From Acidobacteriota bacterium (lineage in GTDB: Bacteria > Acidobacteriota > UBA6911): DNA of 64,000 nt. Each line of letters begins with the position of its first letter. Positions within the stretch are counted from its first letter, which is position 1. The notes beneath the pieces are model-generated. The model did no database searches, had not been told where the DNA came from, and saw only the letters and a list, made by a program, of their open reading frames with translations. The stretch covers positions 86,519 through 150,518 of the forward strand of contig JAAYCX010000012.1 of the NCBI GenBank assembly GCA_012729555.1. Reading direction: 5' to 3'. Below are positions 2 through 52,684 of this stretch, piece by piece. The translations under genes were made by a program, and so were the position numbers.

Positions 2-1396
2 CGGGGGGGGACCGGCCGCTTCCGGGGGCTGCGCCTGGTCCACACCCACCTCGGCGGCGAACGGCTCACCCAGGACGACCTGACCGACCTCGCCCTGCTC
101 CGCCTGGACCTGGTCGCGGCCGTGCAGGTGGGGGAGGACGGGACCGCGGGGGCGATCGAACTCGCCCACATCCTCCCCGTCCAGGATGGCGCCCCCTCAC
201 CGGCCGAGCCCTTCCGCACCATCACGGCGCGCGACGTCTACAGTCTCGATTTCGACCCGGAGGAGGAAATCCGCGCCCTGGAAAGCGAGTTCTCCCGGAT
301 GACGGCGGCGCGGGCGGACCAGCCGGAGCGGGAACGCGCCCTGCTCCTGGTCACGGCGCCGGGGGAAAACACCAGGCTGGAAATCACCGAACTCGCGAAG
401 GCGGCGGGGGCCGATATCGCCGAGACCATCCAGCTCGCCCGGGGAAAGATCCACCCCCGCACCATCGTCGGTCAGGGGCGGCTCCGCGCCCTCGCCCTTT
501 CCGCCATGAGGCGCGGGGCCGACACGGTCCTGTTCGACATCGACCTCAAGCCGGCGCAGGCGCGCGCGTTCGAGGACTCCACGGGGCTCAAGGCCGTGGA
601 CCGCACCCAGCTCATCCTCGACATCTTCGCCCAGCGGGCCCGCAGCCGCGACGGCAAGCTGCAGGTGGAACTGGCGCAGCTGAAGTACTCCCTCCCCCGC
701 CTGACGGAGGAGGATGCCGGGCTGTCACGCCTGACCGGCGGCATCGGCGGGCGGGGGCCCGGGGAGACGGTGCTCGAGATCGGCCGCCGCCGCGCCCGCA
801 GCCGGATCCGCCACCTGGAAAAGGAGATCGAAAAACTCTCCCGGCAGCGGGGGGTCCGCCGCCGGCGCCGCATGCGCCAGGGGCTTCCCGTCCTCTCCAT
901 CATCGGGTACACCAACGCGGGAAAGAGCACCCTGCTGAACGCCTTGACCAGAAGCAGCATCGCGGCGGCCGACCAGATGTTCGTCACGCTCGACCCCACC
1001 TCGCGCCGGCTGCGCTTCCCGCGCCAGGGGGAGGTCATCATCACCGACACCGTCGGCTTCATCCGCGATCTCCCCCCGGACCTCGTTACGGCCTTCCGCG
1101 CCACCCTCGAGGAACTGGCCGACGCGGACCTGCTGCTGCACGTCGTGGACGCCGCCGACCCGAACCTGGAAAACAAGATGGAAGCCGTCAACCGCGTCCT
1201 CGGGGAGCTGGAGCTCGGGGCCATCCCGAAGCTCACGGTCCTGAACAAGGCCGACCGGGTCCCCCCCGGACTGCTCGAAGCCCTGTGCCGGCGTTACGAG
1301 GCCGTCGCCGTCAGCGCGCTCTGCCGCGACGGGCTCGACCGGCTCGTCGAGGCGGCGGAAGAGGTGGTCCGGCTGCGGCTGGCCCCCAGGGAGTGA
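2..1396 (+). CDS. hflX: GTPase HflX (5' partial; reading frame open to window start)
   Basis: G1 P-loop [16 protein letters not shown]3 DTVGFI, NKAD G4 motif; N-terminal HflX domain [26 protein letters not shown]; frame is open back to nt 2 with no stop. Confidence 0.85.
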
Positions 1397-1542
1397 GGAC
1401 CACGGACTTCCGCCGCCCCCGGACGCCCGTTTCCCCTTGTACGAAAAGGGGATATTGTGTTAAAAGAGGTCGGATCGAGGACACGTTCACCGGCGGCCCC
1501 CGCCGGGTGACCGATCGCCATATATCGGAAGGGAAGGAAAAC

Positions 1543-3294
1543 GTGAAGAATAAGCGAATTTTGACAGGCATCACCTTAACGATCGCGGCGGCCCTGGCAT
1601 TCGCCGGGCTGGCCCCGCTCCCCGCCCAGCAGGGCAAGGGCGCGTCGGGGCCGCTGATCACGGTCCTGAATCCGGCCATCGAGAGCAAGATGGTGGACCG
1701 CATCCCGCTCTCCCCGCGCCTGGACACGCTCGAAGGGAAAACGATTTACCTGGTGGATATCAGCTGGGGGGGGCCCGAAGCCGCCTACAGCGTGTTCGAG
1801 GAAATCCAGTCCTGGTTCGCGCAGAACATTCCCAGCGCGAAGATCGTCATCAAGAGAAAAGCGGGCATGTACACCCAGGATGACCCCGCCCTCTGGAAGG
1901 AAATCGCCAAGAACGGAAACGCCGCCCTGGTCGGCATATCGGGTTGAGATGGCTGTACGTCGGCCGTGAGCCAACATGCCAAAACCCTGGAACAGATGAA
2001 CATCCCCACCATCGGCGCCGCGGGCGCCAATGTCGTCAACTACGCGAGGGGGTACGATTTCGAGTATACCAACGGGATGCCGATCCGCTACGTGGGCTTC
2101 CCGTTCCCGGTCGCCGGCCAGCCCCGGTCGGTGGCCCACAGCTACGTGTTCGAGCGCAACGACGTCGTCACCGGGAAACCGATGATGCAGGCGATCGTCG
2201 ACGCCTGGACCAAGCCGTTGACCGAAAAGGAAAAGATCTCCGGGAAACCCCCGGAGGCGCGTCCGGAACCGCGGCTGCTCAAGGCGGACACCGAGGACAA
2301 CCTGCAGCAGCTCTTCAAGGACATGGACTGGACCGACTACAACCCGATCATCCTGCCGACCGAGGAGCGGGTGGCCGCCATGCTCAAGGGGACCAGCCGC
2401 AAGCCGGACGAGGTTGTGAAGGTCATCAACTGGCCCGGCGGAGCCCGGGCGATGACGGTGGAAAAAGTGGCCGTCTGCGCGGTGATGGCCGGGGCCAAAC
2501 CGGCGCACTTCCCCCTGATCCTCGCCGTTTCGACGGCGGTGCCGTTCGGCAACTCGACCAGTTCCATGGCCAACATGATCCTGGTCAACGGCCCGGTCCG
2601 GAACGAGCTCAAGATGAACTACGGCCTGAACGTCATGGGGCCCCACAGCGAGGTTAACAGCGTGGTGGGCCGCGCCTACACCCTGCTGTCGAAGACGGCG
2701 GGGAACCTCCATTCGGGCAAGACGACGTTCAGCGGGCTGGGAAGCAACATCCAGTACAACAACCTCTGCATCGCCGAGAACGAGGAAGCCCTGCCGGCCG
2801 GGTGGCAACCCACCCACGTGCTGAAGGGGTTCAAGCCCGCCGACAGCATCGTCACGGTGGGCACGGGCTGGAGCTACATCTCGAGCGTCGGGGAGGTCCA
2901 GTTGCACTACCCGCCGCAGCACCTGATCCGCGACTACATGCGGTCGCTGACCGGGATGGGGGCCACGGTCATCATGACCCCGGAGGTCGCCGGCATTCTC
3001 AAGGACGCCCAGGGGTTCTCGACCAAGCGCGACCTGAGCAAGTGGCTGGCGGAGAACGTGGAGAAGACCGTGGGTTCCTACTGGGGCAACGGCGTCATCT
3101 CCACGATGTATTCCTCCATGGCCATGCAGGGCCTGGAGCCCTTCGCCTCCCAGCGCAAGCAGGACCCGGAAACGATGATGAAGCCGCTGCAGGCGGGACA
3201 GGTGAACATCGTCGTGGCGGGACAGGGGCAGACCACCTGGTTCGTCACCGACTTCGGCGTCGGCCGCGGCACCAAGGTGGACGACTGGAAATAG
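1543..3294 (+). CDS. Secreted selenoprotein, UxxC motif, in-frame TGA (Sec) at 1945..1947; N-terminal ~130-aa domain fused to ~440-aa domain of unknown function (paralog of 7764..9497)
   Basis: GTG start at 1543 preceded by GGAAGGAAAA; signal peptide KNKRILTGITLTIAAALAFAGLAPLPAQQ; ORFs 1285..1947 and 1966..3294 are in the same frame separated only by TGA; translation across TGA gives GISG-U-DGCTSAVSQHAKTLE, conserved with paralog (GH-U-SQCAPAVVGHAITFE); conservation continues through the stretch between TGA and the ORF-finder start. Confidence 0.6.
1948..1975 (+). other. Candidate bacterial SECIS-like stem-loop immediately 3' of the in-frame UGA
   Basis: GGCU-GUACGUC-GGCC hairpin (1951..1965) starting 3 nt after UGA; needs RNA folding to confirm. 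Confidence 0.3.
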
Positions 3295-3320
3295 CCCGGC
3301 CGCCCGGGCGGGACAAACCA

Positions 3321-3361
3321 GCCGCGGATCCGGAATCCCCCGGGTCCGCGGCTTTTTTTTT
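3321..3361 (+). terminator. Rho-independent terminator after selenoprotein gene
   Basis: 13-bp GC-rich stem GCCGCGGATCCGG / CCGGGTCCGCGGC (one G-U pair), 6-nt loop, followed by T9 tract. Confidence 0.7.
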
Positions 3362-3399
3362 GCTCCCTCCCCGGGCGGAGGCGCGCCCCTCTGCTATGA

Positions 3400-4656
3400 T
3401 TGGGAATCATGGCCGGGATGACGGACGACAACGGAACGGTTCACGGGCCGGCCCCCGGTTCGGGGGAGATTCCAGATGCGAGGGACCGGCTGCTGGCGCG
3501 GGACTTCGTCCTGACGGCACTGGCCAATTTCACCAACTCCTTCGGCATGCAGATGCTGGTGGCCACCATGCCCGTCTACGTCATCAGCCTCGGCGGGAGC
3601 CAGACCGACGCGGGCATGGTGAGCGGGGCCCTCGCGCTGACGGCCCTCCTTTTCCGCCCGCTGATGGGGTGGCTGACCGACGCCTGGCGCCGGCGGCCCC
3701 TGATCCTGGTCGGGACTTCGTGCTACGGGTTCGCCAGCGTCATCTATTTCCTGACCGGGTCGATCCCGCTTCTGCTCGTCGGGCGCTTCGTGCACGGCTT
3801 CGGGTTGAGCTGCTACACCACGGCGAGCAACGCCTACATCGCCGACATCGCCCCGCGCGCCCGCCGGGGGGAGGCCGTGGGGCTGTTTGCGGCCGCGCAG
3901 GCCGTGGGCCTGATCATCGGCCCGGCCGTCGGCTTTCTGCTGATCGACACGATCGGGTTTCACCGCCTCTTCTACTTTTCGGGAGGGCTGGCTTTCGCCG
4001 CCTTCTTCATCTCGCTCTTCACGCGTGAGCGGCGCGCGCCGGGCGACCCTGCGCACGCCCGCTGGTCGCTGCGCACGGGGCTGGTGTCGGTCCGGGCCCT
4101 GCCGGTCGCGTGGATGGCCCTCTGCATGGGGATGGGGTTCGGGGCCGTCAGCGCCTTCATCGCCATCTTCGCCCGCACCCGCGGGTTTCCAAACCCCGGG
4201 TTCTACTTCATGATCCAGGCGCTGGCCCTCATCGTCTGCCGCATCGCCGCCGGCCGCCTGTCCGACCGCTACAACCGGGCGGTCACCATCGTGCCCGGCC
4301 TGGTGCTGGGCGCCGCGGCCCTGGCCCTCCTGCCGCTGGCCCACGGGACGGCCCTGTTCGTACTCTCCGCCTCCCTGTTCGGGTTCGGGTTCGGCTCGGC
4401 CCAGCCGGCCACCATGGCCCTGCTCATCGACCGGGTCGGGCCCGAGGAACGCGGGCTGGCCGTCAGCACCTACTACGCCGGGTTCGATGCGGGGGTCGCG
4501 ATCGGCTCCTTCCTGCTGGGGGTCGTGAGCCAGCGTTTCGGCTTCGGCGTCATGTGGCCCCTGGCGGCCTTCTGCATCCTGCTGGGGCTTGCCGGCTTCC
4601 TCCCCGGCGGGCACACGAAGCAAAAAGATTGCCCGGGGACGCACAATCAATGTTAG
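3400..4656 (+). CDS. MFS transporter
   Basis: 12-TM profile, MFS signature region GALALTALLFRPLMGWLTDAWRRRP, repeated halves. Confidence 0.8.
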   Translation: MGIMAGMTDDNGTVHGPAPGSGEIPDARDRLLARDFVLTALANFTNSFGMQMLVATMPVYVISLGGSQTDAGMVSGALALTALLFRPLMGWLTDAWRRRPLILVGTSCYGFASVIYFLTGSIPLLLVGRFVHGFGLSCYTTASNAYIADIAPRARRGEAVGLFAAAQAVGLIIGPAVGFLLIDTIGFHRLFYFSGGLAFAAFFISLFTRERRAPGDPAHARWSLRTGLVSVRALPVAWMALCMGMGFGAVSAFIAIFARTRGFPNPGFYFMIQALALIVCRIAAGRLSDRYNRAVTIVPGLVLGAAALALLPLAHGTALFVLSASLFGFGFGSAQPATMALLIDRVGPEERGLAVSTYYAGFDAGVAIGSFLLGVVSQRFGFGVMWPLAAFCILLGLAGFLPGGHTKQKDCPGTHNQC

Positions 4657-4694
4657 ACTCGCCGGGTCATCTTTTGCGCAAAAGGAGAAACATC

Positions 4695-5360
4695 ATGAGT
4701 TCGACCAAAGACGAGAAACCGGGCCGCAGGGCGTTCTTCCAGGAAATCACCGCGGGAACCGCGGGGTTTGCGATGGCGACGGCCCTGGCCCAGATGGCCG
4801 CGCCGGCCGCGGCGGCTCAGGACGCCAAGGCGCCCGCCCCCAAGAAGGCCGAATCGGCGTTTTTCAAAAACCCTCCGCCATGGCCCAAGGGGACCGAGGG
4901 GAGCAAGTACGACCACCTGTTCAGCACCAGGCTCCGGGAAAACACGATCGTGCCCGACATCGTTCCCGGCCCCCAGGCCTATTTCCGGGGAGACAGCGAC
5001 CTCCCGGGGGCGAAGATCAACATGGGGTGGCAGATCTTCACAAAGCCCTACCGGCTGGAGATGGAATCGCACCACCACGACACGGACGAATACCTCTTCT
5101 TCCTCGGTTCGACCCTGCCCGACCTGGCGGGTTCTTTCGACGCCGAGATCGAGTACTTCATGGGCAAGGAGTACGAACGGCACATCATCACCAAGGCGAC
5201 GGTGCTCTACATCCCGGCGGGACTGGAACACAATCCCTGCGACATCCGCAGGGTGGGCAAGCCGCTGCTCTTCAGCGCGCTTCAGCTCGCGCCTTACTTC
5301 AACGGCGTCTACCAGACGCAGGGCTACATGGAATTGCGGGGAATGAAGAAGATCGACTGA
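4695..5360 (+). CDS. Tat-signal cupin-domain protein
   Basis: RBS AAAGGAGAAA; twin-arginine motif GRRAFFQEI plus hydrophobic region; cupin metal motif HHHDTDEYLFFLG. Confidence 0.6.
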   Translation: MSSTKDEKPGRRAFFQEITAGTAGFAMATALAQMAAPAAAAQDAKAPAPKKAESAFFKNPPPWPKGTEGSKYDHLFSTRLRENTIVPDIVPGPQAYFRGDSDLPGAKINMGWQIFTKPYRLEMESHHHDTDEYLFFLGSTLPDLAGSFDAEIEYFMGKEYERHIITKATVLYIPAGLEHNPCDIRRVGKPLLFSALQLAPYFNGVYQTQGYMELRGMKKID

Positions 5361-5414
5361 ACCCCGGCCGCACGGGGGCCCGGAACGGTCCCCCGTGCGG
5401 CAATGGCGCCGGCC

Positions 5415-5912
5415 TCAGGCCAGCCCGAGCGCATTCTTCACATCGTCGAGGAAGGCCTGCTCCGCCCCGCTCACCCTTTCGCCGCCGAATCCCAAAAATC
5501 CTCCTTCCCTTGCGGCGCCTGCGGCTTTTTCGGCCACCTCCAGGATCAGGTGCCGGTACGCTGCGGCCTCTTCCGGCGCCGCCTTGCCCCCGAGCAGTTC
5601 CATCGCCTCGCCGATGCGCGCGAGCACGGCGGATTTGAGGTTTTCCATCTGCTGCCGGCGGTCCCCCTCGCCCAGGAGCGTTTTCGGATCGGGTGTCCCC
5701 GGGGTGCTCCGGTCCTCCAGCATCGCGGCAAGAAGTTCATGCCCCGCCCCCTGCCTGAGCGACCCGATCCATCCCGTCGCCCCGGCCGCCGCCTCCTTCA
5801 CGGCGCCGATGATGCCGCTGGGATCGGCGGCCGACACCCCGCTCGAGACCAGGGCGGGCAGGATCCTGAGCAGGTTCCACTCCTCGGCCGTGAACATGGC
5901 TCTGGTGGTCAT
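5415..5912 (-). CDS. Hypothetical protein
   Basis: 165-aa ORF convergent with cupin gene; no recognisable catalytic motif. Confidence 0.4.
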   Translation of the reverse strand: MTTRAMFTAEEWNLLRILPALVSSGVSAADPSGIIGAVKEAAAGATGWIGSLRQGAGHELLAAMLEDRSTPGTPDPKTLLGEGDRRQQMENLKSAVLARIGEAMELLGGKAAPEEAAAYRHLILEVAEKAAGAAREGGFLGFGGERVSGAEQAFLDDVKNALGLA

Positions 5913-5941
5913 GGCCCCTCTCCTTTCAGGAAAACGTCCGC

Positions 5942-6355
5942 TCAGGCGTTGGGGATCTTGAGCACCTGTCCCACCTTGATGAGGTTCGGGTCGGTGAGCT
6001 GGTCCTTGTTGGCGTCGAAAATCTTCATGTAGGCGCCGGCGTTGCCGTAGAACTGCTTCGCGAGCTTCGAGAGCGTGTCCCCCGGCTGGACCGTATAGGT
6101 CTTTGCCGCCGGGGCGGCCGCGGCTGGGGGCGCCATCGAGGGATCGATGACGATGTCGCAGGTCAGGTCGGCGTAGGCCGGGTCCACGAGCTTGATCTGG
6201 TTCCAGATGGCGTTTTTCTGTTCCTCGGTTCCGGCCGAGGCCTTGACGAAGAGTTTGTTGTCCTGCAGGTGGAGGTTGTGCATCCGGAGTTTCTTCTGCT
6301 CGATAAGGCGCAATACCGACTGATACTTCGCTTTGAGTTCCTCGAAACGGTCCAT
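5942..6355 (-). CDS. BON/LysM domain protein (YgaU/Kbp-like)
   Basis: C-terminal LysM YTVQPGDTLSKLAKQFYGNAGAYMKIFDANKDQLTDPNLIKVGQVLKIP; start at MDRFEEL with RBS GGAGGCAGC. Confidence 0.65.
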   Translation of the reverse strand: MDRFEELKAKYQSVLRLIEQKKLRMHNLHLQDNKLFVKASAGTEEQKNAIWNQIKLVDPAYADLTCDIVIDPSMAPPAAAAPAAKTYTVQPGDTLSKLAKQFYGNAGAYMKIFDANKDQLTDPNLIKVGQVLKIPNA

Positions 6356-6387
6356 GCTGCCTCCTTTATGAGAAAGAATGAGATTTC

Positions 6388-6418
6388 CTGCCGCGGCTTC
6401 GGATTGCGGCCGCGGTCC
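6388..6418 (-). terminator. Possible terminator downstream of FemAB-like gene
   Basis: 7-bp GC stem CCGCGGC/GCCGCGG with 11-nt loop, T-rich run following on minus strand. Confidence 0.3.
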
Positions 6419-6497
6419 CCGTAGCATTCAGCATACCCGCCCGCGCTCCGCTCCGTCAAACTCTTTGCCCTCGCCGGGCGGAGGCGCCCCGCCCCGG

Positions 6498-7685
6498 TCA
6501 TGCCGGCAGCGCCGCTTCGCAAAAATTGCTCTGCAGTTCGCGGCTCCGGTAGCTTTCGTATTTCTCCGGGTCGATGGGAAAGTCCCACGAACCGACCCGG
6601 TGCTCGATGCGGCCGCCGAAGCCGGTCTTGAACCGGTAGAGACCGTAGAACGGGTGGAGCGGGTCCCGGAGGGCCGACACCGCCCCCATGTCATAGGACA
6701 GGCAGCCGCTCCGCCGCGCCTCCCGGATGGCGTGCCACTGGACGGCGTAAGGCGCCATCAGGTTGCGGCAGGAGCTCGAGGAGGCCCCGAACAGATAGGT
6801 GGCGGCCTTCCCCGAACGCGCCACGATCGCGCCGGCCAGCGTCCGGCTCCCATGGAGGGCCAGGTAGAAGGCCAGGGTGGGGCCGTTCCGTGCGCCGGCC
6901 AGGGTGTCGAACAGGGCCGCGAAATGGGCATAATCGCGCGCGGGGAAACGGTTCCGCCGGCATGTCTCCAGGTACAGACCGTAAAACGCCGGCAGCGCCG
7001 CGGCGTCGGCGGCGACGACTTCGACCCCCTTCCTCCCGGCCAGGCGGACATTGTAGCGGGTCTTGGGCTTCATGCCGTTGAGCAGCTGCTCCTCGCTCCC
7101 GGCGAGGTCCAGGACCAGGGAGTCGGCGACGGTCAGGTCGAGCGGGGCCTTGCGCAGGTTCCACTGCCGGGTGGAAAAGTTCATGCGGATTTCGCGCAGC
7201 CGGTTCTCGGGGCGCCAGAGCCCCGCCGCGGCCCCTTCCCCTTCGGCCTCGCCGTCGAGGGCGTAGGGGTCGGCCCAGGGGAGATCGTAGCGGATGAACA
7301 CGCAGGCCGGGTCCAGGTAGCGGGAGACCGCATCGGACAGTTCCTCGAGGAACCGGCCGTAATCCTGCGGGTCCGGCCCGTGCTCGGGCCCCTGCGGGAC
7401 GCACGCCATCGCCGTGTCGCCGTCCAGGGGCCGGGTCAGGGCCATCATGTCCCCCGTCCCGGAGGGGCGGGAAATTTCGAAGGCCTCCACCTCCCACCCC
7501 AGGCGCCGCTTCACGCTCCCCCAGAAGGATGTCTGGAAAAGGATATCGGTGGGGTAAAGCCGGCTCGCGGGCTTGGGCGTCACCTCGAGATTCATGATGA
7601 CGAAGTTATCCCTCATTCGGCCCCCGATCTCAATGGGGGAAAGCAGGAAAAGACCTGCTCCAATGGAGGGCGGGGCGTCATCCAA
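6498..7685 (-). CDS. FemAB-family / GNAT-fold peptidoglycan bridge-forming aminoacyltransferase-like protein
   Basis: Length and composition typical of FemX/FemAB family (BioF2-like N-acyltransferase fold); alternative start at internal Met (7616). Confidence 0.55.
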   Translation of the reverse strand: MDDAPPSIGAGLFLLSPIEIGGRMRDNFVIMNLEVTPKPASRLYPTDILFQTSFWGSVKRRLGWEVEAFEISRPSGTGDMMALTRPLDGDTAMACVPQGPEHGPDPQDYGRFLEELSDAVSRYLDPACVFIRYDLPWADPYALDGEAEGEGAAAGLWRPENRLREIRMNFSTRQWNLRKAPLDLTVADSLVLDLAGSEEQLLNGMKPKTRYNVRLAGRKGVEVVAADAAALPAFYGLYLETCRRNRFPARDYAHFAALFDTLAGARNGPTLAFYLALHGSRTLAGAIVARSGKAATYLFGASSSSCRNLMAPYAVQWHAIREARRSGCLSYDMGAVSALRDPLHPFYGLYRFKTGFGGRIEHRVGSWDFPIDPEKYESYRSRELQSNFCEAALPA

Positions 7686-7763
7686 CCGCCCGGAACCAGC
7701 CTTGATGAAAAGAGCGGCGGCCGGGTCGCGGCCGCCGCCCTCTTTGCCCTCAGCCGCGCGCGG

Positions 7764-9497
7764 CTACCGCCAGTCGTCGATCTTGACGCTCCGGCCGTAG
7801 CGCAGCCCGCCGATGCTGTAATAATTATTGTTCGTCCCGCCGGTGACGATGATGGCGGTGTTGGAAAACCCGCCCATCATCGGCGGCATCTCCGCCTTGG
7901 GGGCCGGTTTCGCCTGGGCCCCGCCTTCCGGCTTCGCCTTGGGGGGCGCCATCTTTCCCATCGGGAACTGCGGCGCCGGCTCCAGGTACCTTTCAAACTT
8001 CTCCACAGTGTCGTAGCCCGCGTTCTTGATGAACTGGGCGATCGGGGGGCTCAGCACCGCGCAGGCTCCGAACAAAAACCCCTGCTGGTCGAAGATGTCC
8101 TTGATGATCTTGGGATAGTCCATCTCCTTTCCCCAGCTGGCGGCCTTCCAGTTGGCGGCCGAGAGCACGCCCCAGCCCTCGAAGAGGCTGACGATGTTCT
8201 CCCCCTTTTTGAACCCCTTGCGGACCGAGAGGGGGGCCCAGGGGGACTCCTCCTCGTTCTCGGCGATCACGATGTTGATCAGGTTCATCGGGTTGCCGAC
8301 GACGCCCATGTAGGTCGTCCCCACCTTGCCGCAGTTGCCGAGGTTGATCGACATCAGCGACCAGGCGCGCCCGATGGTGGTGTTGGCGTGGGCGTAGGGC
8401 CCCATGGCCCCCACCTTGGAGTTCAGGCCGATCTCGTCCCGGATGGCCCCGTTGATGACCAGGGCGCCCACGAAGGAGTTGTCCGACACCGAGATCGCCT
8501 CCTTCCCGGTGGAGGCCACCGCGAGGAGGAGGGGGAAATATTCCGGCTTGCACCCGGCCATGACCGCGTTCACCGCCACGTCCCGGACCGTGTAGGTCCA
8601 GTCCTTGAAATAGGTCCCGGTCTGGGTGGGCGACATCCTGCCCACGATCTCGTCCGGTTCGTGGCTCGTCCCCTTGAGCATGTCATCGACCCGCTCCGGG
8701 GTGGGCAGCACGATGGGGAGGAAATCGGTGTAGCGTTTTTCCAGAAACATCCTGTGCAGGTTTTCGGCCGTGTCGGTGAAGGTGCCCGGCCCCCGGCTCT
8801 GCTCGACCTTCCCCGTCCGCTTCTCTTCGGCCGTCAGCGGCTTGGTGAATTTTTCGACGATCTCCCGCATGACGGGCTGGCCCGTGATCGGGTTTTTTCC
8901 GTTGATGACGTCGCGCCGCAGTTCGTCGCGCGTCTTGGCCCAGACCGGGCCCCGGATCCACTGCGTCCGCAGCCCCGGCAACCCCTCCTGGAGCGCCTTG
9001 TCGACCTCCTGCTCGTAGAACTCGGAGAGGACGATCGGGACGGCGGGTTTGTTCAGCTTGGTTTCAAAAGTGATGGCGTGGCCGACAACCGCCGGCGCAC
9101 ACTGGCTTCAATGACCCAGGGCGATGATGATGCCGTCGGCCTTCTCCTTCATCTCCGCCCAGAGCTCCGGGTCCTCGGCGTCGAATCCTCCGCCCCCCTT
9201 GCGCTTGAACACGGTCGTGGTCCCGGGATGGTTCGCCTTGAACCAGTCCTGGATCTCGTAGAGCAGGTTGTCGCCGCCGATGAACCCGTCATCGACGAGG
9301 TAGATCGTCTTCCCCTCAAGCGTGTCGAGCCGGGGCGCCATCTGCTGGAGCGTGATCGGCGGGGGCGTTCCGAGCGGGTTCAGCACGGTGATCTTCTCTT
9401 CCGCGGCCGCCGCGGCCCGGCCGTCGAGGGCCGAATACGTGCAGGACAGGCCGAGGCACAGCAGCGCGATCAGGACTACGGGTTTGTGCCACTTCAT
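7764..9497 (-). CDS. Secreted selenoprotein paralog, in-frame TGA (Sec) at 9108..9110; same two-domain architecture as 1543..3294
   Basis: ATG 9497 with GGAGGAG RBS; signal peptide MKWHKPVVLIALLCLGLSC; ORFs 9108..9533 and 7764..8981 are in the same frame; read-through gives GIIIALGH-U-SQCAPAVVGHAITFETKLNKPAVPIV... conserved with paralog; both end KVDDWK/KIDDWR. Confidence 0.6.
9078..9100 (-). other. Candidate SECIS-like stem-loop 3' of UGA (minus strand)
   Basis: GUG-C-GCCG[GCGGUUGU]CGGC-CAC hairpin beginning 7 nt after UGA; G/U-rich apical loop. Confidence 0.3.
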
Positions 9498-9670
9498 AGG
9501 GACTCCTCCGTTGAATGCTTTGTGATACGACAATCCCCCGGGGCCCGGCCTTCGCTCGAACCGGCCCAGGGCATCGTCCTCCGAGACGTTCCAGCATAAT
9601 GCGGCCCGTCCCGGAAATCCCGATAAAAATCGCCTGGTTCCCCTCCCGCCGCGCTGCGGTTCTCATGGTG

Positions 9671-10087
9671 TCACAGGAAGGGATTTTCGATCCGCAGGCC
9701 CGCGATGATCTGTTTGTTGTTCAGATCTTCCGAAAGAATCCTTGCAGCCCCGCTCCTGACGGCGGAAGCCACAATGAGGGCATCCCAGAACCCGATCCTG
9801 GCTTCGTCCTCGATCCGAAACGCCAGGTCGAGTTCAGCCGATGTGATGACGGCGCACCAGAGGGCATAGCTGGCAAGAATGAGACGCGCGGTCGGCTTCG
9901 GCAGGGGTTGCGCGATCTTGCGGGTCACATTCACGTAAAATTCCTGCAATACCTGGGTACTGAGAACTCCGCAGCGATCCGCCCACAGATCAAGAAGGAT
10001 GCCCTTTGCCCTTGCCTGTTTGGCCCCGGAATCCGCATCGTGCGCATAAATCAGCACATTCGTGTCAATAAAGGTCTTATCGCTCAT
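9671..10087 (-). CDS. vapC: Type II toxin VapC (PIN domain ribonuclease)
   Basis: FIDTNVLIYA N-terminal PIN acidic residue, conserved D/E residues, 138 aa, overlaps upstream antitoxin gene by 11 nt. Confidence 0.8.
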   Translation of the reverse strand: MSDKTFIDTNVLIYAHDADSGAKQARAKGILLDLWADRCGVLSTQVLQEFYVNVTRKIAQPLPKPTARLILASYALWCAVITSAELDLAFRIEDEARIGFWDALIVASAVRSGAARILSEDLNNKQIIAGLRIENPFL

Positions 10088-10331
10088 GCAACTCTTCCCG
10101 GCCGGCGGAAATCACTCCGCCCATGTGAAAAGGCTTGTCCAGAAGAGCGATGGCCTGCCGTTCGGCTTGAATGTAAGCCTCGTCCGCCCGAACCAAATCC
10201 TCGAGCTGCTGGGAGAGAAGGCCGCTGATCGACGTTTCCCGCCGGGCCGCAATGACCTTGGCTTTTCGAAGTAAATGCCGGCTCAGGCTGATGGTGATGT
10301 TCTGCTTGTCGCTGTTTCCGGATGGCGTCAT
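10077..10331 (-). CDS. vapB: Type II antitoxin, ribbon-helix-helix (VapB/CopG-like)
   Basis: 84 aa, RHH-like ITISLSRHLLRKAKVIAARRETSISGLLS, immediately upstream of and overlapping PIN toxin. Confidence 0.6.
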   Translation of the reverse strand: MTPSGNSDKQNITISLSRHLLRKAKVIAARRETSISGLLSQQLEDLVRADEAYIQAERQAIALLDKPFHMGGVISAGREELHER

Positions 10332-27437: not shown

Positions 27438-28106
27438 CTATCTCGAGCGTTTGAGGCCGATCCGGGGGCAGAAGCGGGCGACCGGGCAGCGGCTGCACCA
27501 GGGGGAGGAGGGGACGCAGAGGTTCTGGCCGAAGGTGACCAGGATGTCGTTGAGGCTGATCCAATGGCGCCGGGGGAGCTTCCGGCGCAGGGCGGACTCG
27601 GTCTCGTCCGGGGTCCGGGTCGCCACGTAGCCCCACAGGTTGCAGATGCGGTGGACATGGGTGTCCACGCAGATGCCGTAGTCCCCGAACCCCACGGTGA
27701 GCACCAGGTTGGCCGTTTTCCTCCCGACGCCGGGCAGCGCGAGCAGCCCGTCCATGGACCGGGGCACCCGTCCCGAATGCTCCCGTTCGAGGCGGAGCCC
27801 GATCGCGACGAGGTGCGCCGCCTTGGTACGATAGAAGCCGACGGGGTAGATCAGCCGCTCCACCTCCTCCCGAGCGAGTCCGGAGAGCGCCCGTGGAGTC
27901 GGCGCCCGCCCGAGCAGGCGGCGCGAGGCGGCCTCGGTCACCTTGTCCCTCGTGCGCAGCGAAAGGACGGTGCTGACCAGGGTTTCGTAGGGGCGGTCGA
28001 CCGCCCCGTCGGCGATCACCCCCACCGCCGGGACTTTCCATAGAGGGAGTTCCCGCTTGAGCCGGGCCAGCACCCTGCCCAGCGTCCGCGTATCCATCCC
28101 TTTCAA
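27438..28106 (-). CDS. nth: Endonuclease III (DNA glycosylase/AP lyase)
   Basis: HhH-GPD region LPGVGRKTANLVL and [4Fe-4S] cluster C-x6-C-x2-C-x5-C at C-terminus. Confidence 0.8.
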   Translation of the reverse strand: MKGMDTRTLGRVLARLKRELPLWKVPAVGVIADGAVDRPYETLVSTVLSLRTRDKVTEAASRRLLGRAPTPRALSGLAREEVERLIYPVGFYRTKAAHLVAIGLRLEREHSGRVPRSMDGLLALPGVGRKTANLVLTVGFGDYGICVDTHVHRICNLWGYVATRTPDETESALRRKLPRRHWISLNDILVTFGQNLCVPSSPWCSRCPVARFCPRIGLKRSR

Positions 28107-28579
28107 GGAAGCGCCGGGATCTGGAAGACCGGACCGAGGGCCGAGCGTTTCGGGGCAAGGGCGCGCATGGAAGGCTCCGGGAGGAGTTCCAGGGGTTTGA
28201 TCCCCGACGGGGGGAGGGTGGGGCCGTTCCAGGTCATCATGCCACCGGCGTTGTACACCCGCTCGTAGCCTTCGGACGCCAGGTAGTTCGCCGCGAAGGC
28301 CGCGCGGCCGCCGGTCCGGCAGTAAACGACGACGGCCCGGTCCTTCGGGATCCGGGCCGATTCCCGCATGAAGGGCTCGGGCCAGGCGAGGTGGTAGGGA
28401 CGGCAGGAGTCGTTGCCGATGACGGCGTCGATTTCCTCGATCGTCCTCAGGTCGATAAGGATGAAGTCGAAAGCCGCCCCGCCGGACAGGAACCCCGCCA
28501 GCTGGCCCTGCGCCATCGGGCTGACGGCCGCGTGGCCCGCCGCAACCGCAAAAAGAATCAAAAGCAGGATCTTTTTCAT
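28103..28579 (-). CDS. Periplasmic rhodanese-domain sulfurtransferase
   Basis: Signal peptide MKKILLLILFAVAAGHA; active-site loop CRTGGRA; 4-nt overlap with nth start. Confidence 0.7.
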   Translation of the reverse strand: MKKILLLILFAVAAGHAAVSPMAQGQLAGFLSGGAAFDFILIDLRTIEEIDAVIGNDSCRPYHLAWPEPFMRESARIPKDRAVVVYCRTGGRAAFAANYLASEGYERVYNAGGMMTWNGPTLPPSGIKPLELLPEPSMRALAPKRSALGPVFQIPALP

Positions 28580-28716
28580 GAAATGTCCCTCAAAAACCGC
28601 ATTCTTGACCTGGATCAATCCCATCCGTCCCCCCTGTCTTCATTATTGCAGGTGTAGGGCGCAAAATAAACCCGCGGGTTGAGGATGCGCGATAACATGA
28701 AAAAGGAGGGGCGAAA

Positions 28717-29562
28717 ATGAAGCGCAACATAATCCGGATCGACCAGGAAAAATGCACCGGGTGCGGCCTGTGCGTGTCGGGGTGTCCCGAAGGCGCGCTG
28801 CAGCTCATCGACGGCAAGGCGAGGCTGGTGGGAGACCTGCTCTGCGACGGCCTCGGCGCCTGTATCGGCCAATGCCCCGAGGGGGCGCTGACGGTGGAGG
28901 TACGGGAGGCGGAGGCGTACGACGAAATCCGGGCGCTGGGCAACATCGTCCCCCAGGGGCCGAACGTCCTCGCCGCCCATCTCAAGCACCTGAAGGACCA
29001 TCGTCAGGAGGAGTACCTCCGCCAGGCCGTCGCCTACCTCGAGGAAAACGGGATCCCGTTCGACCCTCCCGCCGACAACGCCCCCGCCGCGCCCGCCGCC
29101 GGGTGCCCCGGGTCCCGGAGCGTAACCTTCGCACCCAGGAGAGAGGGGGAAAACGACGGGGCGAAACACCCCTCGAGGTTGACCCACTGGCCGATCCAGC
29201 TCCACCTGATCTCCCCGGCGGCCCCGCAGTACCGCGACGCCGACCTGCTGATCGCGGCCGATTGCGTCGCCTTCTCCCACGGAGACTTCCACCGGGACTT
29301 TCTCGAGGGGCGCGCCCTGGTCATCGCCTGCCCCAAGCTGGACGCGCGCCAGGAGGCCTACGCCGAAAAACTGACGGCCCTGATCGAGCAGGCCCGCTCG
29401 GTCCGGATTGCCATCATGCAGGTCCCCTGCTGCGGCGGCCTTCTCAACCAGGTGCTCCAAGCCGCCGCGCGGGCCGGGCGCAAGCCTCCCATGAGCTGCG
29501 TCGTCGTAGGGCTGGAAGGGGAAATCCTCCGCGACACCCCCGTGGAGGCGGGTGCGGCCTAA
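28717..29562 (+). CDS. 4Fe-4S dicluster ferredoxin-domain protein
   Basis: Two CxxCxxCxxxCP motifs (CTGCGLCVSGCP, CDGLGACIGQCP) at N-terminus; C-terminal domain with CC pair, unknown function. Confidence 0.55.
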   Translation: MKRNIIRIDQEKCTGCGLCVSGCPEGALQLIDGKARLVGDLLCDGLGACIGQCPEGALTVEVREAEAYDEIRALGNIVPQGPNVLAAHLKHLKDHRQEEYLRQAVAYLEENGIPFDPPADNAPAAPAAGCPGSRSVTFAPRREGENDGAKHPSRLTHWPIQLHLISPAAPQYRDADLLIAADCVAFSHGDFHRDFLEGRALVIACPKLDARQEAYAEKLTALIEQARSVRIAIMQVPCCGGLLNQVLQAAARAGRKPPMSCVVVGLEGEILRDTPVEAGAA

Positions 29563-29765
29563 TCCTCGAGGATGAAGGTGACCTTCAGCTGAACCCGGAA
29601 TTCGGTCACCCGGCCGCCGTCGTCGACGACCACTTCCTGGTTTTCGATCCAGGCGGATTTGACGTTCTTGAGGGTCTTGGAAGCGCGGGCGACCCCTTCC
29701 CTGATGGCGTCTTCAAAGCTCTTGGCGGACGATGATTTGATTTCGGTAACGCGTGCGATGGCCAT
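29559..29765 (-). CDS. Dodecin family flavin-binding protein
   Basis: ~68 aa, pattern IELIGSS...FEDAIREGVARASKTLKNV....E.....V.....V.LKV.F.LE typical of dodecin. Confidence 0.55.
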   Translation of the reverse strand: MAIARVTEIKSSSAKSFEDAIREGVARASKTLKNVKSAWIENQEVVVDDGGRVTEFRVQLKVTFILED

Positions 29766-29837
29766 GAGAGGCTCCTTTTGATAGAGGATTGAGGGAAAAG
29801 CTATGGATCCCATTGTACCACAAAGCCCGCGCGCGCG

Positions 29838-31523
29838 TCAGGATCGGGGTGGCGCGGCCGGGTAGCCCAGAGCGGCCAGCGCGTGCGGGATCGAGAGGTA
29901 TCGATAGGTCTCGCCGTATTTTTCCCCCCACCCGGCGTGCTCGACCAGGTCCCGCACCGGCCCCTTCATCCCGGCGAACGCGAAGCGGATCCCCTGGTGG
30001 GCGTACGCCTCCATGAGTTCCTCCAGTTCGTCGATCGAGACGGCGTCGATGTCGTTGACGCCCGAAAGATCGAGCAGGATCAGTTTCACCCCCGGACGCC
30101 CGGAGAGGTCCCCGGCCAGGCGGTCCTCCAGGAATTTCATGTTGGCGAAAAAGAGGGACGCGTCCGGCCGGAGAATCAGGACCTCGGGGTGGCGCTTCAC
30201 CTCCGGGTAACGGAGGACGTTGCGGAACACCCCCTCGCTCTCGAGGTACCCGAGCTCGGCGGTGTGCGGGTGCGAACTGCGCCAGATGAAAAGCCCCAGG
30301 GAGAAGACCATCCCGATCAGGAGCCCCCGATCGAGCCCCACGCCCAGGGTGCAGGCGAAGGTGATCAGGAGGATCGCCCCGTCCGATTTCTTGATCCGGA
30401 AAAGGCGGATGGCGTCGCGGGCGTCGATGAGGCCGACGACGGCCACGATGATGACGGCGGCAAGGACCGCGTTGGGGAGGTGATAGAACAGCGGAGTCAG
30501 AAAGATGAGGGTGAGCAGGATGAGGGCGGCCGTGACCAGCGACGCCACCTGGGTGCGCGCGCCCGACTGGTGATTGACCGCCGTCCGGGAGAACCCCCCG
30601 GTCACCGGGTAGCCGGAGGAAAACGCGGCCGCCATGTTGGCCGCGCCCAGGCCGATCAGTTCGCGGTTGGGGTCCACCTTGTACCCCGACTTCGCCGCCA
30701 TGTACTTGGCCACCGATATCGATTCCATGAAACTCACGAAGACGATGGCCAAGGCGTCCAGGAAGAGCTCCTGGATCGCCAGCGGGTTGAACGAGGGGAG
30801 CGACAGGGGCGGGAGGCCGCGCGGCACCTCCCCCACGGTCCGGATGCCGAGCTCCCCCCAGGTCCAGGTCAGCAGGGAGCCCGCGATGACGAAGAGGATG
30901 GCCGAGGGGAGCCGTGGATACATCTTCCGGAGCACTACCATCCCGGCGATCGAGGCGAGGCCGAGAACCAGGGTCGGCGCGTGGATGTCCCCCGCCCCGC
31001 GAACGATTTGCTCCAGCAGTTCGAAGACCGAATGCCCCCCGCCCCCTTCCACTCCCATCAAATGCCGGACCTGGCTCAGCGCGATGACCAGGGCGGCGGC
31101 GGCCGTGAATCCCCCGATGACGGCGTGGGAGAAGAAATTGATCAGGAAACCGAACCGGAGCAGGCCGGCCGCGAGCTGGAGGACGCCCACCATCAGGGCC
31201 AGCAGCAGCACCAGGCGCACGTATTCGGGGGAGCCCGGGGGCGCGAGGCGCGAGCAGGCGGACAGGGTGAGGAGCGAGGCCATCGCGACCGGGCCGACGG
31301 CGAGATGGCGCGAACTTCCCAGAAACGCGTAGACGGCGAGCGGGATCACCGAGGCATAGAGCCCGATGACCGGGGGCAGTCCCGCAAGCATGGCGTAGGC
31401 CATCCCCTGCGGCACCAGCATCACCGCGATCGTCAGCCCGGCGGCGGCGTCGGCGGAGAGATCCCCCCGGTCATAGCCCGGCAGCCATCCCCGGCGCCTG
31501 CGGGTGGAACGCGCCATGGTCAC
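29838..31523 (-). CDS. SulP family anion permease with C-terminal STAS domain
   Basis: SulP TM core and STAS domain (ILLDLSGVNDIDAVSIDELEEL); 561 aa. Confidence 0.85.
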   Translation of the reverse strand: MTMARSTRRRRGWLPGYDRGDLSADAAAGLTIAVMLVPQGMAYAMLAGLPPVIGLYASVIPLAVYAFLGSSRHLAVGPVAMASLLTLSACSRLAPPGSPEYVRLVLLLALMVGVLQLAAGLLRFGFLINFFSHAVIGGFTAAAALVIALSQVRHLMGVEGGGGHSVFELLEQIVRGAGDIHAPTLVLGLASIAGMVVLRKMYPRLPSAILFVIAGSLLTWTWGELGIRTVGEVPRGLPPLSLPSFNPLAIQELFLDALAIVFVSFMESISVAKYMAAKSGYKVDPNRELIGLGAANMAAAFSSGYPVTGGFSRTAVNHQSGARTQVASLVTAALILLTLIFLTPLFYHLPNAVLAAVIIVAVVGLIDARDAIRLFRIKKSDGAILLITFACTLGVGLDRGLLIGMVFSLGLFIWRSSHPHTAELGYLESEGVFRNVLRYPEVKRHPEVLILRPDASLFFANMKFLEDRLAGDLSGRPGVKLILLDLSGVNDIDAVSIDELEELMEAYAHQGIRFAFAGMKGPVRDLVEHAGWGEKYGETYRYLSIPHALAALGYPAAPPRS

Positions 31524-32077
31524 ACTCCAGATTTCTCCAGGAAGCAGAGAAGCGCGAAAATCGCTGCGGCCACGACCGCCACCACCACCCAGGCGTTGAG
31601 CTTGAGGATCTCGGGAATCGTCCGGGCGCCGAAATCCCCCCGCTCCAGGACCGGTTTCTGCAGGGCGGGATAGGCTGCGGCGAATATCCCGGCCCCGATC
31701 AGGATGCCGAGAACGCCGCCGAACAGGGCGTCGAGCGACCCCTGCCCCACCGCCCCCGCCGCCGTCCCCGGACAGTAGCCCAGGATGCCGAAGCCGAGTC
31801 CGAAGATCAGCCCGCCCGGGACGATGGCGCCCATGGACCCCGGCTTGGGGTGGAGCCGGGCCAGGCCCAGGCTTCGGAGGGCGTGGACCCCGATCATCCC
31901 GGTCAGGACGGCGCTCAGCATGATCTTGACCACCGTAAAATCCTCGAAGAGCAGCTGCCCGATGATGACGTCGAACCGGGTCGCCCCCCCCCTTTGGAGC
32001 AGGAAGCCGAAACCGATCCCCAGGAGGAAGCCCAAAGTCAGCTGCAGCCCTTTCCTGCCATGTATCGCCTCGAGCAT
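31520..32077 (-). CDS. YeeE/YedE family sulfur-compound transporter, second half
   Basis: 185-aa multi-TM protein with GxxxG-rich helices; RBS AAAGGGGGGG; ORF-track N-terminal extension rejected. Confidence 0.6.
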   Translation of the reverse strand: MLEAIHGRKGLQLTLGFLLGIGFGFLLQRGGATRFDVIIGQLLFEDFTVVKIMLSAVLTGMIGVHALRSLGLARLHPKPGSMGAIVPGGLIFGLGFGILGYCPGTAAGAVGQGSLDALFGGVLGILIGAGIFAAAYPALQKPVLERGDFGARTIPEILKLNAWVVVAVVAAAIFALLCFLEKSGV

Positions 32078-32088
32078 GCGCCCCCCTT

Positions 32089-32616
32089 TCAGAGCAGAAC
32101 CCGGTAGATCAGCATCGCGGTGGCGATGCCGCCGGCGAAGAAGCAGACGACGGCGAGCCAGCTGCTCGCCGCCAGCTGCAGCGTCCCGCTGATGCCGTGC
32201 CCGCTCGTGCACCCCCCGGCCCAGCGGGCGCCGATTCCCATCAGAACCCCGCCCGCCAAGGCGACGCCCCAGCGGAGGAGGCCGCTGTCTCCCGCCGCCT
32301 CGCGCCACAGCGGCGGGACCCAGGCCAGTCCGAACCCCCCCGAAAGGAGGGAGGAGAGCAGCGCCCCCAGGACGATGCCCACGACGAGCATCCACTCCCA
32401 GTCGATCACCGGGGCGAACTGCCGGTAATAGGGCTTCTCGACGACCCCTTTTCCCCTGAAGGCCTTTTCGATCATCCCGCTGCTGCGCGCGAACGCGGTC
32501 GAACAGCCGATGGGCTTGTCCGAGAGCAGGAAAGCGAGCCAGCTCAAAACGCCGATGCCGGCCCCGACGGCGTAGGGCGACCAGCGTTCCATCGTCAGCC
32601 AATGCAGCCAATCCAT
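32089..32616 (-). CDS. YeeE/YedE family sulfur-compound transporter, first half
   Basis: Conserved GCTSGHG motif, ~5 TM. Confidence 0.65.
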   Translation of the reverse strand: MDWLHWLTMERWSPYAVGAGIGVLSWLAFLLSDKPIGCSTAFARSSGMIEKAFRGKGVVEKPYYRQFAPVIDWEWMLVVGIVLGALLSSLLSGGFGLAWVPPLWREAAGDSGLLRWGVALAGGVLMGIGARWAGGCTSGHGISGTLQLAASSWLAVVCFFAGGIATAMLIYRVLL

Positions 32617-32673
32617 GGCAACCTCCCGAACCCGATAACGGTTTTCGTCTCCCCCCTCCCCGAGGCGATGTTC

Positions 32674-34086
32674 CTACGAGGTCCTCGGGACGTGCGGCGC
32701 CACGCACATGGGACATTCGGGGCTGAACCCCGCGGCGCTGTATCCCGTCATGCCGCCGGCGACGTTGCACACGTTCGCAAAACCCGCCTGCTTGAGCAGG
32801 GAGGCCGAAAGGCTGGAGCGGTGCCCCGTGCTGCAGATCACGGCCACCGGCCGGCTCTTCTTCAGGGAACCGTGCCGGGTACGCAGGTCGGGAGCGGGAA
32901 TATTGACGGCGCCCTCGATATGAACGGCTTCGTACTCGCCGGCGGCCCGCACATCGACCAGCGTGAGTTCCGACCGCCCTTTCATGAGCTGGTTCAATTC
33001 CCGGACCGAAACCTGCGGCACGTGCCCGGTCGGGAGCCCTTGGCGCGACCACTCGAACATGCCGCCGTCGAGATACCCCACGACGCGGTCCAGGCCGACG
33101 CGCCGGAGCAGGACGCCGGCCTCGTAGGCCTCCTCGCCCGATCCGGCCACGAGCAGGATGTCGTGGTCGGGCGGGAGGACCCAGCCGGCGAAGGTGGAGA
33201 AATTCCCGCTGATGTCGATGTTGTACGCGCCGGGGACATGCTGCCCGCCGAAGGCGTCGTAGCTCCGGATGTCGAGCACGATCGTGTTCTTCTTTCCCGC
33301 GGCCTTGCTGAACCGCGCGGGGTCCATCAGGAGAATGCCGGGGAGGGTGTGGACCCTGGCGGGCCCCTTGCCGTTGATGGCGCTGCAGCGGCTGAAATGG
33401 TCCGGGGCTGCCGGCATGTCGGTGGTCAGCGAGCGGATGAACTGCTCGCGGTCCGGGATCTGCAGCGCCGGGTTGCAGCGCCGCTCGTACCCGATCGTCG
33501 TCCAGCGTTTCGCCCCCATGGCGCGCCCGCAAAGGCTGCCGGCGCCGTGGGCGGGATAGACGTCGCAGAAATCGGGAAGCGCCATGAGCTTGCCGTGGAG
33601 GCTGTCGTAGAGCTTATGGGCCAGATCGCGCGCCTTGCCGGGGAAGAGGTCGGGCCGGCCGACGTCGCCGACGAACAGGGTGTCCCCGCAGAAAACGGCC
33701 GCCGGCTCCTTTCCGCGGCTGCGGTCGGTGACGACATAGCTGATATGCTCCGGGGTATGGCCCGGGGTCTCCAGCACCCGGATGCTCATGTTTTCGATCC
33801 GGAAACTGTCCCCTTCCGCGACCGCGCGGTGCCTGAAGCGGCATTTGGCCGATTTGGGGGCGTAGATCACCGCCCCGGTGGCGTCCGCCAGGTCCAGGTG
33901 CCCGGAAATGAAATCGGCATGCAGATGGGTTTCCAGGATATGGGTGATCTTCATCCCCATCTCCTCCGCGGCGTGCAGGTACACTTCGATGTCGCGCTGC
34001 GGGTCCACGATGGCACAGGTGTCCGTCCCGCCGAGGAGGTAGGAACTGTGCGCAAGGCCTTTCACGAAAAACTGTTCTACATACAT
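32674..34086 (-). CDS. Persulfide dioxygenase (MBL fold) fused to tandem rhodanese domains (CstB-like)
   Basis: MBL metal motif THLHADFISGH, two rhodanese domains with C-terminal catalytic CSTGHRS. Confidence 0.8.
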   Translation of the reverse strand: MYVEQFFVKGLAHSSYLLGGTDTCAIVDPQRDIEVYLHAAEEMGMKITHILETHLHADFISGHLDLADATGAVIYAPKSAKCRFRHRAVAEGDSFRIENMSIRVLETPGHTPEHISYVVTDRSRGKEPAAVFCGDTLFVGDVGRPDLFPGKARDLAHKLYDSLHGKLMALPDFCDVYPAHGAGSLCGRAMGAKRWTTIGYERRCNPALQIPDREQFIRSLTTDMPAAPDHFSRCSAINGKGPARVHTLPGILLMDPARFSKAAGKKNTIVLDIRSYDAFGGQHVPGAYNIDISGNFSTFAGWVLPPDHDILLVAGSGEEAYEAGVLLRRVGLDRVVGYLDGGMFEWSRQGLPTGHVPQVSVRELNQLMKGRSELTLVDVRAAGEYEAVHIEGAVNIPAPDLRTRHGSLKKSRPVAVICSTGHRSSLSASLLKQAGFANVCNVAGGMTGYSAAGFSPECPMCVAPHVPRTS

Positions 34087-34285
34087 ATCTCATCTCCTGT
34101 CTGAGGTGCGTGGGAAAGATGCCGATCGATCATCTCGTTCTTTTACCCTAAATCCGAGCCCCCTGTCATCGCAAATCGGCGCCGGCGGCCCGGCCGCGGG
34201 GGGGTTGACACGTCCCGCGGGCCGATGGACAATGCCATCGGCCCCCGCTTCGGGGAGCGCGCACAGGACAAGGAGAGCATCCCCC

Positions 34286-52332: not shown

Positions 52333-52602
52333 ATGGTCAGATACGCAAGACGCGTCGTCGTGTTCATGGTCGGCATGACGGTATTTCTTTTCGGAATCGC
52401 ACTGGTCTTCCTCCCGGGGCCCGCCTTCGTCGTCATTCCCGTCGGGCTGGCCATCCTGGCCACGGAATACGCCTGGGCCCGGCAGTGGCTGCGCGTCATG
52501 AAGGAATCGGCGGAAAAAGGAGCCGAAAGGCTGAACCTCCGTTCGCTGTTTTCCAGGACCCCCGGACCCGACGGGGGAGGAGCGTCGGCCGATAGCCCAT
52601 AA
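52333..52602 (+). CDS. Small membrane protein with PGPGW-like motif
   Basis: LPGPAFVVIPVGLAIL motif, two TM helices, 89 aa. Confidence 0.45.
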   Translation: MVRYARRVVVFMVGMTVFLFGIALVFLPGPAFVVIPVGLAILATEYAWARQWLRVMKESAEKGAERLNLRSLFSRTPGPDGGGASADSP

Positions 52603-52684
52603 ATTCCCTGATTGCAACGGTTCCCCCCCATCGTCAAATGAGATACAATGCATACCTCGACCGCGTTGGCGGGTGGGGAGAGCG

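Follow-up and report, generated by a model that had tools for sequence, protein, structure and literature searches.

A 64,000-nucleotide stretch of an Acidobacteriota metagenome-assembled genome (MAG) (lineage UBA6911; assembly GCA_012729555.1, contig JAAYCX010000012.1, positions 86,519 to 150,518 of the forward strand), hereafter referred to as the window, carries near its beginning two pairs of open reading frames (ORFs), the members of each pair being separated by a single in-frame TGA. An original prediction, made from the sequence alone, proposed that each pair is one gene encoding a secreted selenoprotein, with selenocysteine (Sec, U) at the TGA, and that both products are paralogues. 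Our analyses indicate that gene 1 (1543..3294, + strand) and gene 2 (7764..9497, - strand) are very probably single Sec-encoding genes of the UGSC family, as judged by sequence comparison.

Two TGA-interrupted genes

The ORF pairs were confirmed at 1285..1947 and 1966..3294 on the + strand, and at 9108..9533 and 7764..8981 on the - strand, with both ORFs in the same frame within each pair. Read-through translation of 1285-3294 (+) and 9533-7764 (-) met one internal stop per gene, TGA both times, and gave the peptides quoted in the original prediction. The likely start of gene 1 is the GTG at 1543, preceded by GGAAGGGAAGGA, and that of gene 2 is the ATG at 9497, preceded by GGAGGAG, both being purine-rich ribosome-binding motifs. 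From these starts, the complete coding sequences comprise 583 and 577 residues, respectively, and the internal TGA, the putative Sec codon, is located at 1945..1947 (+) in gene 1 (residue 135; GISG-U-DGC-TSAV) and at 9108..9110 (-) in gene 2 (residue 130; ALGH-U-SQC-APAV). Both genes end with TAG (3292-3294 and 7764-7766), whereas TGA closes 23/36 window genes; with n=2, this difference may be due to chance.

Aligned over 572 residues, the two full-length proteins share 34% identity (E 1e-90), which agrees with the proposed paralogy, and the motifs that had been named for their N- and C-terminal domains were found in both, namely ITVLNP, RLDTLEGKTIYLVD, LPTxERVxxMLKGTS, AVMAG and a C-terminal DDWK/DDWR. 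The G-x-U-x-x-C motif held in part: G-x-U is true for gene 2 only (G-H-U; gene 1 reads S-G-U), whereas the remainder, U-x-x-C-x-x-A-V-x-x-H-A-x-T-x-E, is common to both. With regard to export, the gene 1 product begins with MKNKR and the gene 2 product with MKWHK, each followed by a hydrophobic stretch (1543..1632, + strand, and 9402..9497, - strand; approximate boundaries). Thus, a basic n-region precedes a 12-residue hydrophobic segment with a mean Kyte-Doolittle value of 2.25 in gene 1 and 2.92 in gene 2, and the same arrangement is kept in homologues. By composition, both N-termini fit the signal peptides that had been suggested for them.

In the source MAG, the two loci are annotated as four separate hypothetical proteins (GXY47_03320 and GXY47_03325 for gene 1; GXY47_03360 and GXY47_03355 for gene 2), the very outcome that had been foreseen for annotation pipelines, and the top 120 matches of each half among public sequences are split likewise.

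Conservation of the TGA codon and of the sequence that follows it

Scanning of species-representative genomes for gene 2 yielded 29 loci, and scanning of metagenomes for gene 1 yielded 75 loci, with 66 copies covering the TGA site. TGA occupies the identical codon in 18/18 gene-2-type loci besides the window copy (19 in total), these copies deriving from Acidobacteriota, Desulfobacterota/Desulfatiglans and one gammaproteobacterium. Likewise, 66/66 site-covering gene-1-type copies read GISG-TGA-DGCTSAV, and a divergent copy in locus L064 reads GIGG-TGA-HGC, bringing the gene-1-type copies with TGA to 67. A third paralogue type (GH-U-SVCAPGAV) displays TGA at the same codon in 4 copies. Full-length homologues of ~555 residues that are free of stops carry Cys in the Sec column, within HCSTC (P0246, P0258), GCSTC (P0263) or SCPGC (P0259); P0314 and P0323 are further Cys homologues at this column, and the homologues from rumen Clostridia (loci L020-L029) read PSCSTT, with the Cys aligned to the UGA codon. 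Comparison of homologues at the presumed Sec position thus returned the pattern of a selenoprotein family, and on these alignments the conservation of the codon is far beyond chance, the same TGA recurring in every homologous locus of these types that covers the site.

Decaying pseudogenes or TGAs introduced by assembly errors, for which nothing speaks beyond the internal stop itself, would hardly produce one and the same TGA across assemblies made independently for many samples and phyla; besides, the GC content at third codon positions (GC3) is 0.92 before as well as after the internal stop, with no further stops or frameshifts, and we regard this explanation as practically negligible. A different alternative is that the TGAs are genuine stops and each locus is a two-gene operon, encoding a UGSC fragment of ~130 residues and a separate protein of ~400-440 residues. 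Exactly such a split is what gene callers give for the source MAG and many other metagenomic sequences, and TGA is the commonest stop of the window. However, the 7 and 42 codons that precede the first possible start after the TGA show conservation at the protein level, the Pfam domain would be cut in its middle, the stop-free homologues are single polypeptides with Cys in that column, and, instead of independent genes with unconserved spacing, both frame and spacing are invariant across phyla. Moreover, synonymous variation drops precisely behind the TGA, as is expected of an RNA element overlapping coding sequence: at codons of conserved amino acids, synonymous entropy at +1 to +10 is 0.43 bits in gene 2 (1.23 elsewhere) and 0.33 bits in gene 1 (1.10 elsewhere), and these ten codons are the lowest sliding window gene-wide in both genes. 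The stretch after the TGA had been predicted to be under selection as coding sequence, and its conservation as protein is in line with that; true termination at the TGAs is extremely unlikely.

Folding of the sequence downstream of each TGA, which had been proposed as a check, revealed a hairpin resembling a selenocysteine insertion sequence (SECIS) in both genes. In each of them a 6-bp stem starts at nt 15, counted from the U of the UGA, leaving a spacer of 11 nt. The gene 1 hairpin lies at 1959..1975 (+), with the stem formed by nt 15-20/26-31 and a CGUGA loop; that of gene 2 lies at 9081..9096 (-), with the stem formed by nt 15-20/25-30 and a GGUU loop, which is AGUU or GGUC in gene-2-type relatives. 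The third paralogue type forms a 7-bp stem with a GUU loop. Compensatory changes were found in both genes. The gene 1 pair G18-C28 becomes C-G in 3 distinct sequences, and in L064 both G15-C31 and G19-C27 become A-U while the CGUGA loop is unchanged; in gene 2, covariation affects two pairs (G-C to A-U, and G-C to C-G). The minimum-free-energy hairpin of gene 1 (nt 5-23) was rejected, given that compensatory change and the gene 2 geometry were seen only for nt 15-31. Both the 11-nt spacer and the G/U-containing loop agree with the Escherichia coli fdhF SECIS and with the bSECISearch criteria.

Some results weigh against Sec at these sites. Within the 64-kb window, selA, selB, selD and tRNA-Sec were not found; Rfam SECIS families gave no match, either window-wide at gathering thresholds or around both TGAs at E <=10; and the hairpins are no stabler than shuffled sequence (z -0.6 to +0.4). 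The absence of this machinery from the window and of a SECIS family match would suit a UGA that is read through but not as Sec, either by near-cognate insertion of Trp or Cys or by a lineage-wide reassignment of TGA. Yet TGA terminates 23/36 confident genes of the window, which argues against code reassignment; the stop-free homologues have an aligned Cys in a UxxC/CxxC context; a covarying hairpin with a GU-containing loop stands 11 nt past the UGA; and UGSC is an established selenoprotein family (PMC2398784). Read-through of this kind is very unlikely, and the assignment of the TGAs as Sec codons, made in the original prediction, is favored by the cross-phylum conservation, the aligned Cys homologues and the covarying SECIS-like hairpin. 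When the window was searched for further in-frame TGAs flanked by coding signal on either side, strict thresholds left gene 2 alone. An apparent in-frame junction at 32674 was rejected as a case of read-through, since it joins two ordinary adjacent genes.

Domain architecture, gene neighbourhoods and proposed mechanism

Both N-terminal domains score above the 25-bit cut-off of the Pfam UGSC model (PF24696), with 48.1 bits for residues 41-196 of gene 1 (1663..2130, + strand) and 73.4 bits for residues 38-196 of gene 2 (8910..9386, - strand), and the TGA falls midway in the domain in both genes. The resemblance to the UGSC (seleno)protein family was therefore confirmed at the level of the Pfam threshold. 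The 125-bit equivalog cut-off of NCBIfam NF041046 was missed (33.4 and 38.6 bits), and the RefSeq proteins bearing the UGSC name themselves reach just 50-60 bits with the library copy used. The literal U-G-S-C motif is absent, being U-D-G-C in gene 1 and U-S-Q-C in gene 2, with the UxxC spacing kept. For full-length structure modelling we took P0115, the nearest of the stop-free full-length homologues, which shares 57% identity with gene 2 and has Leu at the Sec column. Its full-length model reached a predicted local distance difference test (pLDDT) of 88.9 and a predicted template modelling score (pTM) of 0.88, the latter implying a fixed two-domain arrangement. The N-domain is modelled as flavodoxin-like, not thioredoxin-like, with the U/CxxC position at the N-terminus of a helix, directly after a beta-strand. 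P0115, which reads GH-L-SFC at the Sec site and displays a twin-arginine SRREF leader, may have lost Sec and be exported by another route.

The C-terminal domain, which has no assigned function, spans 2287..3291 (+) in gene 1 (~335 residues, beginning near DTEDNL) and 7767..8777 (-) in gene 2 (~337 residues). These C-terminal ~340 residues match no Pfam or NCBIfam model and no PDB sequence in single-sequence and profile searches, and the confident model of the gene 2 domain has no structural relative in the PDB. The domain family is large, with 3,365 representatives at 50% clustering (E <=1e-3), 1,813 of them at E <=1e-10, and its invariant residues are Pro, Gly, Asn, Glu and Arg (LPxxPT, N-MAG, NGP, AN-IGRA, ENEE-SPW). 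The large domain fused to the UGSC module had been described as unassignable, which is borne out; the fusion, however, is not peculiar to this locus, being usual in the proteins listed in RefSeq as "UGSC family (seleno)protein". In addition, five proteins of ~710-740 residues (P0278, P0289, P0307, P0312, P0364) consist of two tandem C-domain copies, with neither a UGSC domain nor a Pfam match, indicating that the C-domain can exist without the redox module. The Sec column itself varies across the wider family, being U or C in some clades and L, T, M, G or S in others, and neither Cys nor His is among the invariant residues of the C-domain; at the sequence level, this suggests that binding or transformation of a substrate belongs to the C-domain, the redox pair being an accessory that a subset of members has.

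The neighbourhoods of the cytoplasmic forms with a Cys-x-x-Cys (CxxC) motif display a recurrent partner. A Pyr_redox_2 gene of ~305-327 codons, similar to thioredoxin reductase (TrxR), adjoins them in 6/6 informative contexts: Pseudonocardia (L105), L106, L107-109 (one gene away in L107), L119 (the contig of P0478, whose protein is named for Phaeobacter italicus), Microbacterium album (L120) and Aquamicrobium (L121). All 3 translated TrxR-like products contain a CASCDG or CACCDG motif of the thioredoxin-reductase type. No such neighbour was seen beside three forms that lack the Cys pair. ATP-binding cassette (ABC) importers, notably of the family-5 solute-binding type, recur near genes of this family, and the operons suggest peptides, opines or small organic acids as candidate substrates. 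At Desulfobacterota-like loci the exported Sec forms are arranged as tandem paralogues, with a DUF8021 gene and a TonB-dependent receptor downstream.

Assuming Sec is encoded, the main functional rival to a dithiol-type redox role is that the U-x-x-C and the His before it serve to bind a metal or cofactor. Many members have a His directly ahead of U or C (GH-U, GH-C), cobalamin-binding domains and parts of the methyl-coenzyme M reductase activation complex are among the best structural neighbours of the N-domain, and the twin-arginine leader of P0115 is of a kind usually seen on proteins that carry a cofactor when exported. Nevertheless, the CxxC forms pair tightly with TrxR-like genes that have a CxxC of their own, the U/CxxC position at a helix N-terminus is like that of redox proteins, the residue ahead of U in gene 1 is Gly instead of His, and the structural matches, at 5-14% identity, are to generic folds of the flavodoxin-like type. 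We consider metal or cofactor binding unlikely.

The mechanism that we propose is a redox relay. A SelB-type hairpin just downstream would recode the internal UGA as Sec, and the products would be exported proteins of ~580 residues, with a signal peptide and a flavodoxin-like UGSC domain that a conserved linker joins to the ~340-residue domain of unassigned fold packed against it. The selenol/thiol pair would act as the redox centre and would hand on reducing equivalents to a small molecule bound as substrate by the C-domain; in the cytoplasmic CxxC relatives, this centre would be re-reduced by the adjacent TrxR-like flavoprotein, the order being NAD(P)H, TrxR-like flavoprotein, C/UxxC and finally the substrate on the C-domain. 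We infer such a relay because TrxR-like genes adjoin the CxxC forms (6/6) and none stands beside the three forms without the Cys pair, and we give it about an even chance of being correct. Several findings count against it: the neighbourhood correlation comprises nine contexts in all, no redox partner adjoins the exported forms, an invariant Cys or His was not found in the C-domain, and the Sec column is Leu, Thr, Met, Gly or Ser in many family members, which means that the activity of the C-domain cannot depend universally on the redox pair. On a broader and clearly more speculative level, the two-domain UGSC proteins might be a very large class of reductases, in which a flavodoxin-fold Sec/Cys-x-x-Cys module, charged by a TrxR-like flavoprotein in the cytoplasm or by another donor in the periplasm, feeds a catalytic domain of a fold unseen in the PDB; the Sec forms of Acidobacteriota and Desulfobacterota might then be periplasmic selenoenzymes acting on a TonB-imported nutrient.

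In the window, the neighbours of gene 1 and gene 2 are unrelated to these, namely hflX, a major facilitator superfamily (MFS) transporter, LysM, FemAB and a PIN toxin. The hflX gene (122-1396) was found directly upstream of gene-1-type genes in 19 loci, and this adjacency probably reflects lineage synteny rather than a functional link. Clustering of the flanking ORFs gave mostly noise from high GC, hflX synteny alone emerging, and the Clostridial flanks were uninformative. UGSC-fusion genes are often in tandem, ~1.9 kb apart (L005:1460, L007:1488, L008:1497, L017:3397; L035, L041, L043, L046; L112-L116); the third subfamily (GH-U-SVCAPGAVRLAIE) lies just upstream of gene-2-type genes, and gene-1-type genes are tandemly duplicated in four metagenome contigs. 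Two genes downstream of gene 1, the region 4713-5360 (+) encodes 215 residues without a Pfam match, comprising a leader of twin-arginine-like type (GRRAFF) and a cupin-like core rich in His; this gene is also found near a gene-2-type gene in L003. A PIN-domain toxin gene and a small antitoxin-like ORF upstream of it (9671-10331, - strand; VapBC-type pair) are located immediately upstream of gene 2. Further along the window, a sulfur-handling cluster (28103-34089) comprises a rhodanese, a 4Fe-4S ferredoxin, a SulP/STAS permease, a YeeE/YedE-type half-transporter and a metallo-beta-lactamase (MBL)-fold protein with two rhodanese-like regions; its last two genes abut in the same frame, yet are separate genes without read-through. 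Finally, a very long ORF of 2,319 codons (GC3 0.87) occupies 52535-59491 (+).

Significance and comparison with known systems

The four hypothetical proteins of the source MAG would in reality be two selenoproteins. The same split would apply to a large number of ORFs of 130 and 400-440 residues in public metagenomes, and merging them would correct the selenoproteome counts of Acidobacteriota and Desulfobacterota. Recognition of UGSC-containing proteins as a selenoprotein family dates from the Sargasso Sea and Global Ocean Sampling (GOS) surveys, where they ranked among the most abundant families; UGSC is one of the most abundant selenoprotein families of aquatic samples, and for 20 years it has been without a known function (PMC2398784, PMC13188914). 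Our results provide three handles on it: the real family unit has two domains, the C-domain matching no family model and having no PDB relative, the redox module is modelled as flavodoxin-like, and the CxxC forms bring their own TrxR-like partner. Together, these handles make a biochemical assay straightforward to design. The ~555-residue HCSTC proteins are called "UGSC family (seleno)protein" in RefSeq and "UGSC-like domain-containing protein" in UniProt, so that the two-domain architecture is already in databases, though undescribed; a UGSC fusion to a conserved domain termed "Unknown_1" was reported in 2008 (PMC2398784).

The glycine, betaine and proline reductases (GrdB/PrdB, PF07355, with trxB-trxA partners) resemble the proteins studied here in their possible working, given a UxxC selenoprotein (the motif listed for PrdB is UxxC; PMC2398784), a TrxR-type flavoprotein encoded alongside, and amino-acid or peptide importers as neighbours. 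In contrast, neither PF07355 nor PF09338 was matched even at E 1, no pyruvoyl-proprotein neighbour was seen and no structural match was obtained; the window proteins are not members of GrdB/PrdB, and the likeness is one of logic without homology. Thioredoxin-fold UxxC/CxxC oxidoreductases (thioredoxin-, peroxiredoxin- and DsbA-like) share with them the UxxC at a helix N-terminus and CxxC relatives apparently served by a TrxR-like enzyme.

The closest relatives are found in the UGSC family itself (PF24696; NF041046; the "UGSC-containing protein" of Zhang, Gladyshev and colleagues), with which both products share the Pfam match, a predicted Sec in UxxC at the family position, Cys homologues and the two-domain architecture of ~555 residues. 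They differ in carrying U-D-G-C or U-S-Q-C instead of U-G-S-C, with 33-39 bits to NF041046 as compared to its cut-off of 125; in their putative signal peptides, whereas the RefSeq-named Cys forms that were read have none; in a flavodoxin-like model, as opposed to the thioredoxin-like fold proposed for UGSC in 2008 (PMC2398784); and in that the exported forms have no adjacent TrxR-like gene. Taken together, gene 1 and gene 2 encode divergent members of the known UGSC family, predicted to be exported and to contain Sec, and not a new kind of system; the adjacency of TrxR-like genes to the CxxC forms suggests one new functional lead, namely a redox relay.

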